A stretch of DNA of 18,588 nucleotides. Source: a virus (lineage: Duplodnaviria > Heunggongvirae > Uroviricota > Caudoviricetes). Under the pieces are notes generated by a model. That model saw nothing but the letters and a program-made list of their open reading frames with translations. It was not told the origin of the DNA and made no database searches. The stretch covers positions 1 to 18,588 of IMG/VR virus record IMGVR_UViG_2526164690_000035; one strand, given 5' to 3'. A program made the translations under genes and the position numbers. Every line of letters starts with the position of its first letter. Position 1 is the first letter of the stretch. Of the stretch, positions 9,863 to 11,950 are shown piece after piece.

Positions 9863-10601
9863 CTCCCTGATAGTGCACAAATAATCTGTTCTGATATGTT
9901 AATTGTGTACTTAAAGTAAACGCGTAGTGGCTTGCTTTAGGTTATGGAAGCAAGCTATTGCCTAATATGTTAGATCAAAAAATTTTAATTTTTGCGTTTC
10001 GCTCACCACATATTGAACACTTTAGCCGATCTTTTAATTCTTCCAGAGTCAATCCTGAAGCTACATATTGTTTAATATCTCTTCGTCATTGCATATTCAG
10101 AGGGTAAAGATATACACATACTAAAATGAATTGGCTTAGCTCGTTATTAATCAGAATTCGATGAGACTACTCCATTTTAGGGAATAACATGTATAACTAA
10201 AACACATCGTCTTTAACTCTCACAATATAGATTCAGTTTAATACCCAATCGACAGTAATTAATTTGACTCTACTTTTTAAGTAGATTTCAAATCCACATC
10301 CATTAAAACCCTATTAATTAACAGACTATCTATTTTTGCAGTTATTATTTTTGTGCTAATTTAATTGTTTGTCTTTTGTGCTTATTGTTGATTGTGTTTT
10401 GTTCTATTTTGTCAATTTTTATTCTGTGAATTGAGATTTTTCTAATAGTCCATTGGGTTTTCAAGGTTATTATTTGTGATTTTGATCACAAAAATACCTT
10501 GATTTTTATTTGCAAAACTTGAAACACGAATCCAAAAAAGATAAACATTTGTCCGCAGTGACCTCTTTTCTACTGAAAAGTTCAATCTAAAGGGCAAAAA
10601 A

Positions 10602-11717
10602 ATGAAAAAAATCACAGTGGCACTTTCTGCGGTTGCAGCATCAGTCCTGATGGCAATGTCTGCACAAGCGGCAGAAATCTATAACAAAGACGGTAACAAA
10701 CTGGATCTGTACGGCAAAGTTAATGCAGAGCATTACTTCTCTTCTTCAGCTAGTGATGACGGGGATAAAACTTATGCTCGTATGGGTTTCAAAGGTGAAA
10801 CTCAGATTAATGACCAGTTAACCGGTTTTGGTCAGTGGGAGTACGAATTTAAAGGTAACCGTACTGAAACTGAAGGTTCTGATAAAGATAAAACTCGTCT
10901 TGCGTTTGCAGGGCTTCGCTTTGGCGATTATGGTTCGCTCGACTATGGTCGCAACTACGGTGTAGCGTATGATGTTGGCGCTTGGACTGACGTGCTGCCG
11001 GAGTTTGGTGGAGATACCTGGACTCAGACTGATGTATTTATGACCCAGCGTGCTACTGGCGTCGCGACCTATCGTAACAATGATTTCTTCGGCTTGGTTG
11101 ATGGTCTGAACTTTGCTTTGCAGTATCAGGGTAAAAATGATAGTGCTGCAAAAGTGAACAACTGGAAAGGCCGCGACGTAGTTGAATCTAATGGTGATGG
11201 CTTCGGTCTGTCAGCTACTTATGATTATGAAGGATTTGGCATTGGCGCAACTTATGCAAAATCTGACCGTACTGATGGACAGGTATCCTATGCTAAAGCC
11301 CCTCTGAATCTGAATGCCTCTGGTAAAACTGCTGAAGTATGGGCTACGGGCCTGAAATATGATGCAAACAACATTTACCTGGCTACAACTTATTCTGAAA
11401 CTCAGAATATGACAGTCTTCGGTGATGACCATATCGCGAACAAGGCGAAAAACTTTGAAGCCGTTGCTCAATACCAGTTTGATTTCGGCCTGCGTCCGTC
11501 CATCGCTTACCTACACTCTCGCGGTGAAAATATTGGTGCGTTCGGTAACCAGGATCTGGTTGAATACATCGACGTGGGCGCGACTTATTACTTTAACAAA
11601 AATATGTCCGCTTTCGTTGACTACAAGATCAACCTGATTGATGAAAGTGAATTTACCAAAACATCTGAGGTTGCAACCGACAACATCGTTGCTGTTGGTA
11701 TGACCTACCAATTCTAA
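10602..11717 (+). CDS. General diffusion porin, enterobacterial OmpF/PhoE/OmpC family
   Basis: 371-aa ORF. Signal peptide [23 protein letters not shown] followed by mature N-terminus [16 protein letters not shown]; L3-loop motif PEFGGD; C-terminal beta-strand ending VGMTYQF; conserved blocks [28 protein letters not shown] and [22 protein letters not shown]. Preceded by a roughly 740-bp AT-rich non-coding leader. Confidence 0.9.
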
Positions 11718-11733
11718 TTTTGGTAGGTAAGAA

Positions 11734-11817
11734 TATGCGGGAAGGGAGTGATGTCACTGCCCGCATATAGGTGGCACCCTCATGCCACCTTTGAAGAGGC
11801 AATAAAATTGCCTCTTC
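11734..11817 (+). other. Cluster of three consecutive stem-loops 3' of the porin gene
   Basis: atatgcggg...cccgcatat (11734-11767), aggtggca-ccctca-tgccacct (11768-11789) and gaagaggcaa-taaaa-ttgcctcttc (11793-11817). Could be an mRNA-stabilising 3' structure or repetitive palindromic element. Confidence 0.3.
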
Positions 11818-11871
11818 TCAATTTAACTTCATGTTATTTATTACCTTTTTATTAATTTGAAACTCTATTGT

Positions 11872-11898
11872 TGGGGCGCTTTGTTGCGCCCATTTTTT
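11872..11898 (+). terminator. Intrinsic terminator for the porin transcript
   Basis: gggcgc-tttgtt-gcgccc stem-loop followed by atttttttt on the + strand. Confidence 0.7.
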
Positions 11899-11950
11899 TA
11901 CACCAATTAGGTAAAGTTATTTTTAAGTAATCGAGCAACTTTCAGCCCTC

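Follow-up and report, generated by a model that had tools for sequence, protein, structure and literature searches.

A P7-type nmpC porin unit of P1-like phage-plasmids with a candidate CRP site and a divergent IpeX-family 3'UTR

What does a complete porin gene contribute to a P1-like phage-plasmid when it lies between the end of the dar operon and ssb, and what controls it? The window analyzed here is the whole 18,588-nucleotide stretch of virus record IMGVR_UViG_2526164690_000035. The initial annotation described a complete porin gene at this place, with a signal peptide, a PEFGG L3 motif, and a C-terminal ...TYQF, and all of these are present in an intact, frameshift-free 371-codon ORF (Table 1). 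It also named a chromosomal locus and a frameshifted pseudogene as ways in which its reading might fail; both are ruled out, by the intact ORF and by the flanks, odaA at the dar-operon end on one side and ssb on the other, which are phage genes. From 9863 to 11900, the window is 100% identical in nucleotide sequence to phage P7, with the same neighbors odaA and ssb, and the protein is 100% identical to P7 NmpC (AAQ07495.1). The P7 record (AF503408/NC_050152) annotates the gene as nmpC. Judged by this identity, the porin gene is the known, already annotated nmpC of P7 and its P1-like relatives, and neither the gene nor its hot spot is new: GenBank AF503408 has listed nmpC from the deposition of the P7 genome onward, and PMC6906374 describes both. 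Taken over its full length, the window is not P7 itself but a P7-like plasmid. Outside 9863–11900 it is 98.9% identical to P7, from which it differs in an additional TnpB/IS609-like element at 5229–6563, an IS10 end at 1–194, and different DNA past 16398.

The junction between hxr/odaA and ssb has been described as RD-2, a variable region of P1-like elements (Venturini et al., 2019, PMC6906374), which in P1 comprises 21,540–24,243 (isaA-IS1-isaB) and holds other cargo in each element. Our alignment of the junction with P1 and P1-like genomes recovers this variable site, with isaB-IS1-isaA at the same position in P1; both the IS1 copy that the initial annotation placed here in P1 and its proposal of a cargo insertion site are borne out. 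In other elements the junction harbors, among other cargo, an anti-phage dGTPase, DUF2829, and hypothetical genes. For pSvP1, “P7 nmpC interrupted by IS10” has been described with a 9-bp duplication, TGCTCTGCA (PMC6906374), which corresponds to 10724–10732 of the window; nmpC is intact in the window, and the two RD-2 regions otherwise show no difference of substance. Among 5426 complete E. coli genomes, the P1-like dar-operon end occurs in 479 and the far-upstream DNA of the porin unit in 95 (at 98 sites, of which 96 are on plasmids). About 20% of the P1-like plasmids in these genomes carry the porin unit, and ∼1.7% of the genomes have a P7-type unit.

The DNA upstream of the porin ORF (9863–10601, 739 bp; GC 0.29–0.34 versus 0.465 for the window) matches the ∼740-bp AT-rich leader described initially in length and composition, but it is a composite of different parts. 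The window aligns with P1 at ∼90% identity until ∼10084, at the edge of a 3' remnant of isaB, where the alignment breaks, and the porin unit proper starts at 10087. pHNBY4G-2 has a full-length isaB ahead of the same porin unit, and the left edge of the unit, TCATTGCATATTCAG, is common to two different contexts. A hairpin between odaA/hxr and the isaB remnant is common to P1 and P7, and a “terminator” feature stands at this match in P1 record AJ000741; the hairpin would shield the porin unit from dar-operon read-through. At the other end, the dedicated intrinsic terminator proposed earlier is present, with a stem that is conserved among homologs, including G-U changes. The unit has the attributes of a moron, namely terminators on both sides, a position between phage operons, atypical composition (GC 0.29–0.45 versus 0.465 for the window), and patchy presence in relatives. 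Searches of the unit for a P1 C1 operator and for a P1 late promoter found none (at least 5/17 and at least 6/19 mismatches, respectively). Because of these two absences and the terminator hairpin upstream, the unit is probably under host rather than phage control.

Table 1. Positions of the features of the nmpC locus in the window
Feature	Position	Strand	Basis or remark
odaA (hxr homolog)	9557–9862		dar-operon end, 5' flank
Hairpin GCTTGCTT-N10-AAGCAAGC, between odaA/hxr and isaB remnant	9930–9955		P1-backbone DNA
isaB 3' remnant (∼36 codons + stop)	9975–10084	−	P1 alignment; backbone DNA, outside porin unit
AT-rich far-upstream DNA of porin unit, 28.5% GC	10087–10465	+	Confined to P1-like elements
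CRP-type site ATTTGTGATTTTGATCACAAAA, candidate, with perfect TGTGA-N6-TCACA core at 10475–10490	10472–10493		Consensus match
CTTGAAA, probable −35 hexamer TTGAAA	10518–10524	+	Conservation
Promoter-proximal region and 5'UTR, with conserved GCAGTGAC and Shine-Dalgarno AAGGG	10525–10601	+	Homology
nmpC, general diffusion porin precursor, 371 aa	10602–11717	+	100% to AAQ07495.1
Signal peptide, residues 1–23, then AEIYNKD	10602–10670	+	P7 GenBank annotation, same 69 nt
CAGTGGC, codons 5–7, complementary to RybB 5' seed GCCACUG	10615–10621	+	Duplex −13.9 kcal/mol
IpeX-family structured 3'UTR, stop codon to terminator	11715–11899	+	Covariance model, alignment
3'UTR hairpin 1	11733–11768
3'UTR hairpin 2	11769–11790
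3'UTR hairpin 3	11793–11817
Conserved unpaired core CTTCATGTTATTTATTACC, predicted seed versus ompF/ompC translation initiation regions	11827–11845	+
Intrinsic terminator, GGGCGC-TTTGTT-GCGCCC at 11874–11891, then T7	11874–11899	+
ssb	11951–12439	−	3' flank

The porin had been labeled as OmpF/PhoE type, a label that does not hold. Pfam Porin_1 (PF00267) matches the whole mature protein (residues 29–371, 494 bits). Only the NCBIfam cut-off for the OmpC subfamily is passed (NF007841, 531 bits versus 484); the OmpF equivalog (448 bits versus 583) and the PhoE equivalog (497 bits versus 599) both fail. In comparison with OmpF, OmpC, NmpC/Lc, and OmpD, the nearest relatives in amino acid identity are NmpC (81%) and Lc (79%), followed by OmpD (∼76%), OmpC (61%), and OmpF (56%); identity to the E. 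fergusonii chromosomal porin is 88%. The protein groups with NmpC/Lc/OmpD, ahead of OmpC proper, OmpF, and PhoE, and on these comparisons it is a member of the NmpC/Lc/OmpD clade within the OmpC subfamily of general diffusion porins. It has the L3 constriction motif LPEFGGD and a C terminus ...MTYQF with an aromatic last residue; the basic-ladder and acidic residues are present, with the conserved K/R positions aligned with OmpC/OmpF, and the mature chains of solved OmpC/OmpK36 begin aligning at residue 24. The complement of the RybB seed within the first codons is unchanged across all aligned homologs, and 18/500 shuffles give an equally good duplex. nmpC is a reported RybB target (PMC3333887), and this host sRNA may pair here.

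The far-upstream segment of the unit contains no convincing ORF and no match to an Rfam family. It has no homolog outside P1-like elements among complete E. coli genomes, a 25-mer from it has zero matches among GTDB species representatives, and the upstream DNA of the DLP12, UPEC, and E. fergusonii porins is not homologous to it. It is also the fastest-evolving segment, with 85%–95% identity among P1-like variants. Immediately downstream, the character of the sequence changes. The CRP core, a palindrome 35 bp upstream of CTTGAAA, has no second match in the window, where 0.03 matches would be expected, and it sits inside a longer imperfect palindrome (10461–10502). The site is unchanged in P1-like variants and in the ECSD228 chromosomal homolog, it aligns with the annotated CRP site 1363–1383 of PA-2 lc (J02580), and the E. 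fergusonii homolog has a perfect core with another spacer. Through this candidate site, cAMP-CRP may activate nmpC; in K-12, nmpC mRNA is 6.3-fold down in a cya deletion strain (PMC4512719). CTTGAAA is invariant in the P7-type, DLP12, PA-2, UPEC, and E. fergusonii homologs, and its TTGAAA probably acts as the −35 element. The promoter is placed here by conservation alone, since a sigma-70 consensus scan upstream of nmpC gave no strong plus-strand promoter and no confident −10. Homology to the lc/nmpC leaders begins at ∼10539. Among P1-like variants, the promoter-proximal region and 5'UTR are 98.5%–99.3% identical, compared with 93%–95% for the CDS, and together with the 3'UTR they are better conserved than both the CDS and its synonymous sites.

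The initial annotation missed a structured 3'UTR that follows the stop codon and leads up to the terminator. By covariance model and alignment, it is a divergent, unannotated member of the IpeX RNA family. A model of the family built without P7-type sequences matches it over its full length (83.2 bits, E ∼1e-25 at 11715–11897) and nowhere else in the window, and 10 pairs of the family consensus structure show compensatory changes. The predicted minimum free energy of the 3'UTR is −66.9 kcal/mol (z = −6.0). It aligns with the 3'UTRs of DLP12 nmpC and PA-2 lc, and at least 119 IMG/VR loci have homologs of it, nearly all directly after the ...TTCTAA of a porin. An IpeX-type RNA on P1-like elements is not described in searchable annotations or papers. 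The P7 3'UTR is ∼54% identical to K-12 IpeX and 20 nt longer, and because identity is only at this level, the function of IpeX may not extend to it. Variants share a 3'UTR that is 100% identical, for which recent recombination could be responsible instead of selection. A search of 9500–12500 against Rfam returned nothing beyond a sub-threshold match of the 3'UTR to GcvB (30.5 bits; gathering score, 42). This match recurs on the P7-type ECSD228 3'UTR (28.5 bits) and not on DLP12-type 3'UTRs; membership was rejected, with the GU-rich R1 region absent, and we treat the match as a structural resemblance.

The most conserved block of the IpeX family is an unpaired stretch rather than the hairpins, and this core is invariant in P1-like variants. 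Folding the entire 3'UTR with its targets without restriction gave long, meaningless duplexes and was dropped; duplexes were instead computed on the seed region, with shuffles and controls. The core is predicted to pair with ompF at −26.2 kcal/mol (0/500 shuffles as good), through 12 + 6 bp over the Shine-Dalgarno/AUG, and with ompC at −20.8 kcal/mol (6/500), through 11 bp over the AUG. Duplexes with the unit's own mRNA (−10.9 kcal/mol; 166/500 shuffles as good) and with ompA (−12.3 kcal/mol) are at background level. The seed segment at 11835–11843 is TTATTTATT, and the altered version named for it is TTAAAAATT. With two seed changes relative to DLP12/PA-2 IpeX, the P7-type sequence has ompF in place of ompC as its best predicted target. 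A trans effect of DLP12/PA-2 IpeX on OmpC/OmpF has been demonstrated, and reviews disagree on whether IpeX acts solely by base pairing and whether it requires Hfq (PMC12197685, PMC5069750). The predicted duplexes suggest that the P7-type 3'UTR would likewise repress OmpF/OmpC.

Three other readings of the locus have to be weighed, of which the first concerns its regulator. The initial annotation likened TTGAAACACGAATCC, at 10519–10533, to OmpR-box half-sites; in this reading, OmpR-P/EnvZ would osmoregulate the porin through TTGAAAC...AATC-type boxes in the leader as at ompF/ompC. The string is where it was said to be, GAAAC is present in the real OmpR boxes C1, C2, and F2, and the leader is AT-rich, as OmpR-bound regions are. 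However, a low-power PWM built from six real boxes (F1–F3 of ompF and C1–C3 of ompC) has its best leader match at 5.0 bits, below the mean best score of shuffles (7.6 ± 2.2; 265/300 as good); windows over 10519–10533 score −1.5 bits or less, and the best window containing GAAAC (10511–10530) scores 3.5 bits. Of the “box,” CTTGAAA alone is conserved across homologs, and tandem 10-bp-phased half-sites are absent. Control by OmpR is thus weakly refuted in silico, and we consider it very improbable. It is also conceivable that the unit is a silent or decaying passenger of a recombination hot spot, H-NS-silenced or unexpressed and without a role for the phage-plasmid, comparable to the IS5-disrupted nmpC of K-12. 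The DNA upstream of nmpC is very AT-rich, as H-NS targets typically are; K-12 nmpC is quiescent, and only the fifth or so of P1-like elements noted above have the unit. Several plasmids have IS insertions within the porin CDS, among them the IS10/IS3-family insertions of pSvP1 and pET6.1-IncY, and two more carry an ISVsa5 element inside the 2-kb unit; because of the insertions in the CDS, nmpC appears dispensable and perhaps costly. Against decay, the ORF is intact and full length in 99 of the 130 matching plasmids. Most differences between variants are synonymous (70 nucleotide versus 15 amino acid changes; pairwise among P1-like variants, 57–76 versus 11–19, with every ORF intact), which shows purifying selection on the CDS, and the promoter/5'UTR and 3'UTR are conserved above synonymous sites. 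Intact chromosomal nmpC homologs are, moreover, strongly expressed at 37°C in UPEC CFT073 (PMC12890032). We regard a passenger without function as distinctly unlikely.

The remaining alternative accepts conversion through the added porin alone and reduces the 3'UTR to a terminator and mRNA stabilizer with no trans role. Its three stable hairpins and terminator could guard the mRNA against 3' exonucleases, the resemblance to GcvB suggests that such architectures recur, and the low identity to K-12 IpeX is in line with it. A stabilizer does not, however, explain why conservation in the family peaks in the unpaired stretch, nor why this stretch complements the ompF/ompC starts well beyond shuffles, ompA, and its own mRNA, and the homologous DLP12/PA-2 region has its demonstrated effect in trans. 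A purely stabilizing 3'UTR therefore seems unlikely to us.

We favor, with a probability of about 0.7, a model in which the nmpC unit is a CRP-controlled lysogenic-conversion moron of P7-type P1-like phage-plasmids that swaps porins. In this model, a horizontally moving segment of ∼1.8 kb (10087–11899) at RD-2, between hxr/odaA and ssb, would constitute a full host-style transcription unit comprising AT-rich DNA, the CRP site, a sigma-70-type promoter, the 5'UTR, the porin, the IpeX-family 3'UTR, and the terminator. In the plasmid-prophage state, host RNA polymerase would transcribe it under cAMP-CRP control, with no role for the C1 repressor or a late promoter, and NmpC would be exported and inserted in the outer membrane. 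The 3'UTR, within the mRNA or as a processed fragment, may pair through its core with the ribosome-binding regions of ompF/ompC and lower their translation, a step for which DLP12/PA-2 IpeX is taken as the model. The net result would be lysogenic conversion by porin replacement, in which receptors for OmpC/OmpF-dependent phages and colicins are lost and outer-membrane permeability is altered. Expression of nmpC in lysogens and an ecological pay-off are probable on this model; reports of expression or phenotype of P7-type lysogens, including expression of P7 nmpC, were not found in the literature searched. More tentatively, at somewhat less than even odds, P7-type phage-plasmids carry a retargeted IpeX variant, such that under cAMP-CRP, OmpF (and OmpC) would be replaced by a plasmid porin with different loops.

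The analysis corrects the presumed regulator from OmpR to CRP and the family from OmpF/PhoE to NmpC/Lc/OmpD, and adds to a known gene a predicted, unannotated IpeX-type riboregulator within its unit. If this RNA is functional, phage-plasmids of a class widespread in E. coli reshape the porin content of their hosts. The choice of receptors in phage therapy (OmpC/OmpF-dependent phages) would be affected, as would sensitivity to colicins and, in strains where resistance genes also reside on related P1-like elements, permeability to antibiotics. Should the retargeting hold as well, the availability of host phage and colicin receptors and β-lactam permeability would be altered. On related P1-like elements, mcr-1 or ESBL genes are common.

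Beyond P7 nmpC itself, close known systems are lc of lambdoid phage PA-2, the analogy drawn initially and one that the comparison strengthens, and nmpC of the cryptic prophage DLP12. Their porins belong to the same clade (79%–81% amino acid identity). Homology extends to the promoter-proximal region, where the CRP site likewise lies ∼119 nt from the ATG, to the 5'UTR, and to the 3'UTR, which has the same hairpin order and conserved unpaired core. The carrier here is a P1-type phage-plasmid rather than a lambdoid prophage, and the position is between the dar operon and ssb, whereas in PA-2/DLP12 the unit has Q on one side and the lysis genes on the other. PA-2/DLP12 have a degenerate CRP core in place of the perfect one in the window, and the surface loops differ from those of the PA-2/DLP12 porins, with a 7–8 residue insertion in L4. 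Salmonella OmpD and the chromosomal NmpC-type porins of UPEC and E. fergusonii are 72%–88% identical to the window porin, and the E. fergusonii homolog shares the CRP palindrome and also ends in an IpeX-type 3'UTR, but these genes occupy chromosomal loci without P1 context and their far-upstream AT-rich DNA is not homologous. K-12 OmpC, OmpF, and PhoE share the fold and family (Porin_1, 16-strand trimeric, PEFGG L3, C-terminal Phe) at the greater distance given above for OmpC and OmpF. In contrast to ompF/ompC, the unit in the window has neither an OmpR-box array nor a divergent micF.

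The region at 9863–11900, which the initial annotation took for an OmpF/PhoE-type porin gene, matches Enterobacteria phage P7 (AF503408/NC_050152) at 100% identity; the P7 record annotates the ORF as "nmpC, NmpC precursor". The finding is real, but the gene is already annotated and published. The complete gene, its AT-rich upstream DNA and its terminator had been correctly described; the flanks are odaA and ssb, as in P7, rather than chromosomal genes, and the reading frame is free of frameshifts. P1 carries isaB-IS1-isaA at the odaA-ssb junction, in agreement with the IS1 copy named in the initial annotation. 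This junction is RD-2, one of five variation hot spots in P1-like elements (Venturini et al., 2019, PMC6906374), and comparison among P1-like genomes reveals a variable site with different cargo per element, in other plasmids an anti-phage dGTPase, a DUF2829 protein or hypothetical genes. An anti-phage deoxyguanosine triphosphatase occupies the hxr-ssb junction of pEC2_5 (6073–8004 of the compared locus), and the hot spot therefore hosts defense genes too. The P1-like dar-operon end is present in 479 of 5426 complete E. coli genomes and the porin upstream DNA in 95 (98 places, 96 on plasmids), so about one-fifth of P1-like elements carry the porin unit (10087–11899). In PLSDB, 130 plasmids match, 99 of them over the full length.

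Features of the porin unit and its surroundings (window positions)
Feature	Position	Strand	Remarks
IS10/ISVsa5-type element end	1–194		window begins inside element
TnpB element, IS200/IS605-type	5229–6563		extra relative to P7
TnpB ORF	5272–6480	−	402 aa
odaA	9557–9862		left neighbor of porin region (P7 annotation)
P1 backbone part of leader	9863–10084		terminator hairpin and isaB remnant
odaA/hxr-isaB terminator hairpin	9930–9955		P1 backbone
isaB 3′-end remnant	9975–10084	−	P1 backbone
Far-upstream DNA of porin unit	10087–10465		28.5% G+C
CRP core TGTGA-TTTTGA-TCACA	10475–10490		perfect; conserved part of leader
Porin ORF, nmpC	10602–11717	+	371 codons, uninterrupted
RybB-seed complement CAGTGGC	10615–10621		codons 5–7 of porin
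Unpaired stretch of 3′UTR, P7-type	11827–11845		CTTCATGTTATTTATTACC
Intrinsic terminator	11874–11899		G+C-rich hairpin, T7 run
ssb	11951–12439	−	right neighbor of porin region (P7 annotation)
DUF3944 protein ORF	16816–17568	−	in 16399–18588, replacing P7 DNA
HTH_3 regulator ORF	17584–18057	−	in 16399–18588
Ant/KilAC antirepressor-domain protein ORF	18187–18519	−	in 16399–18588

The window is a P7-like plasmid rather than P7 itself, with 98.9% identity to P7 outside the porin region. The TnpB protein (Pfam OrfB_IS605, Cas12f1-like TNB and HTH_OrfB_IS605 domains) belongs to an element inserted between odaC/ddrA and prt/ddrB, which P7 lacks and which occupies the same position in pEC2_5, pSvP1 and other P1-like plasmids; it has been termed "IS609-like" (PMC6906374). 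The IS fragment at the left end of the window shares 100% identity with one end of the element disrupting nmpC in pSvP1. P7 homology ends ∼140 nt into darB, with non-P7 DNA beyond 16398, and an intact darB appears to be missing from this position.

The porin has a 23-residue signal peptide, with mature OmpC, OmpK36 and PhoE chains of solved structures aligning from residue 24, an LPEFGGD constriction-loop motif and the C terminus ...MTYQF. It scores 494 bits against Pfam Porin_1 and passes the NCBIfam OmpC-subfamily model (531 bits, cut-off 484) but misses the PhoE (497 bits, cut-off 599) and OmpF (448 bits, cut-off 583) equivalog cut-offs, so that the OmpF/PhoE-type assignment was wrong. Amino acid identity is 88% to an E. 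fergusonii chromosomal porin, 81% to intact DLP12-type NmpC, 79% to PA-2 Lc, about 76% to Salmonella OmpD, 61% to K-12 OmpC and 56% to K-12 OmpF. Differences from NmpC concentrate in predicted surface loops and include a 7–8 residue insertion after ...QGKND. Only 42 of 50,697 phage records encode a porin of this type: two P7, two other P1-like phages and a mostly lambdoid remainder. The RybB-seed complement pairs at −13.9 kcal/mol, equaled by 18/500 shuffles; reported RybB targets include nmpC (PMC3333887).

The 739 bp ahead of the ORF (9863–10601; 29%–34% G+C versus 46.5% for the window) are, by their homologies, composite. P1 backbone comes first, and in pHNBY4G-2 a complete isaB precedes a porin unit with the same left edge, TCATTGCATATTCAG (10086). 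Among complete E. coli genomes the far-upstream DNA was found on P1-like elements only, and a 25-mer taken from it drew no match in GTDB species representatives; it contains no convincing ORF and matches no Rfam family, and it is the fastest-evolving segment (85%–95% identity among P1-like variants). Its 10277–10297 / 10329–10423 area contains a near-palindrome, GTAGATTTCAAATCCAC, whose symmetry is perfect in other variants, together with direct repeats of two kinds (TCTATTTTTGCAGTTATTATT / TCTATTTTGTCAATTTTTATT and TTTTGTGCTAATT / TTTTGTGCTTATT); these may be nucleoid-protein sites. From ∼10466, the DNA is homologous to sequences preceding nmpC/lc genes, both chromosomal and lambdoid, and is 98.5%–99.3% conserved among P1-like variants. 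On the right side, P1 homology restarts at the ssb stop codon.

The most striking regulatory feature is the perfect CRP core, which occurs only once in the window, versus an expectation of 0.03. It sits within a 42-bp imperfect palindrome and is unchanged in P1-like variants and in the chromosomal homolog of E. coli ECSD228; the E. fergusonii homolog has a perfect core with another spacer. Deletion of cya lowers K-12 nmpC mRNA 6.3-fold (PMC4512719), and at 37°C the nmpC homologs of UPEC show strong induction (PMC12890032). A simple sigma-70 scan of the upstream DNA gave no strong plus-strand match for a porin promoter. Both the P1 C1 operator and an Lpa-type late promoter are absent from the unit, and host rather than phage control is therefore the natural reading of its sequence. 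OmpR control, the rival proposed from a string at 10519–10533, is unsupported: a matrix built from six real OmpR boxes of the K-12 ompC and ompF promoters reaches at best 5.0 bits on the leader, below the mean best of shuffled leaders (7.6 ± 2.2; 265/300 shuffles reach 5.0), and at most −1.5 bits in windows spanning the string, although we note that the test is low in power because only six sites underlie the matrix. The invariant CTTGAAA (10518–10524) overlapping that string is more simply read as a −35-like hexamer.

Overlooked in the initial annotation was the 3′UTR. The 182 nt between the porin stop codon and the terminator fold at −66.9 kcal/mol (z = −6.0 versus shuffles) and align with the 3′UTRs of DLP12 nmpC and PA-2 lc, the source of IpeX, which represses OmpC and OmpF (reviewed in PMC12197685, PMC5069750). 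A motif scan of IMG/VR recovered 119+ loci, nearly all directly 3′ of a porin stop codon and falling into few sequence types; among GTDB species representatives, the exact family motif occurs on only three contigs, all labeled Escherichia coli. Nine variants, one of them from the E. fergusonii chromosome, share three hairpins and a terminator, with compensatory changes at 10 pairs. A covariance model built solely from non-P7-type sequences has a single match in the window, which covers the full length (11715–11897) at 83.2 bits with E about 1e-25. With a pairwise identity of only about 54% to K-12 IpeX, the P7-type 3′UTR is a divergent family member. A sub-threshold GcvB match (11713–11899, 30.5 bits; gathering score 42) lacks the GU-rich R1 region and was rejected; it recurs in ECSD228 (7255–7443 of the compared locus, 28.5 bits) and is confined to P7-type 3′UTRs, DLP12-type ones lacking it, and probably reflects resemblance in architecture only.

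The most conserved block of the 3′UTR is the unpaired stretch, CCTTCTGTTATATATTACC in DLP12. Duplexes predicted between this region and the translation starts of actual K-12 genes, with shuffle controls, gave −26.2 kcal/mol for P7-type on ompF (0/500 shuffles as good; 12+6 bp over the SD and AUG) and −18.6 for K-12 IpeX (19/500). On ompC the values are −20.8 (6/500) and −26.7 (0/500), on the unit's own nmpC mRNA −10.9 (166/500) and −10.0 (74/500), and on ompA −12.3 and −9.6, respectively. The P7-type seed thus looks shifted toward ompF in these predictions.

Two chromosomal relatives were observed. In ECSD228 (5900–7450 of the compared locus), DLP12-NmpC-like coding loops are joined to a P7-type leader (from window-equivalent 10442) and 3′UTR, amid ISKpn26, IS3, IS30 and IS21 fragments and adjoining a type I restriction-modification system. 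This porin gene with its flanks is a recombinant, showing that regulatory ends and coding body reassort. In E. fergusonii (4369–7300 of the compared locus), drpB and a trkH-like gene flank two tandem porin genes. The second, the 88% relative, comes with a perfect CRP palindrome and with an IpeX-type 3′UTR showing more compensatory changes, and the module may have originated on this chromosome.

The unit is most likely a host-style, CRP-controlled lysogenic-conversion module. Promoter, 5′UTR, porin, 3′UTR and terminator would have traveled as one block among an Escherichia chromosomal locus, lambdoid prophages and RD-2 of P1-like phage-plasmids. A lysogen would gain a porin of the NmpC type whose surface loops are distinct, and the 3′UTR would lower OmpF and OmpC. 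Since the LPS core is what P1 adsorbs to, the expected benefit is not self-exclusion; it would lie in keeping out competitor phages and colicins that rely on OmpC or OmpF, and in altered permeability.

Two further, less likely rivals bear on this model. The unit could be a silent passenger, a reading that the coding sequence speaks against and the IS insertions speak for. The ORF is intact in every P1-like variant copy compared at CDS level, and 57–76 nucleotide differences produce only 11–19 amino acid changes, a pattern indicating purifying selection. Four plasmids of the PLSDB match list have an IS element inside the 2-kb unit, within the CDS in both examined: IS10/ISVsa5 at 10724–10732 in pSvP1, with the published 9-bp duplication recovered ("P7 nmpC interrupted by IS10"; PMC6906374), and an IS3-family element at ∼10895–10902 in pET6.1-IncY. 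The other two of these four plasmids carry ISVsa5 inside the unit. These repeated insertions suggest recurrent selection against expression. The 3′UTR, in turn, could merely stabilize the mRNA, a role that its stable hairpins would suit and that the ompF and ompC complementarity of its unpaired block speaks against; it is 94%–100% identical among P1-like variants, versus 5%–7% divergence in the CDS.

We found no annotation or discussion of an IpeX-family 3′UTR on P1-like elements in the searchable literature and records, and its presence there with a predicted ompF-biased seed is a modest, testable addition. The independent insertions in the P1-like CDS resemble those of IS5 in K-12 and phage 434 nmpC. 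The broad reading of a phage-borne porin cargo analogous to Lc was right, and the likeness to Lc extends to the upstream DNA: the annotated CRP site of PA-2 lc (J02580, 1363–1383) aligns column for column with the core in the window, equally far from the ATG (about 119 nt).
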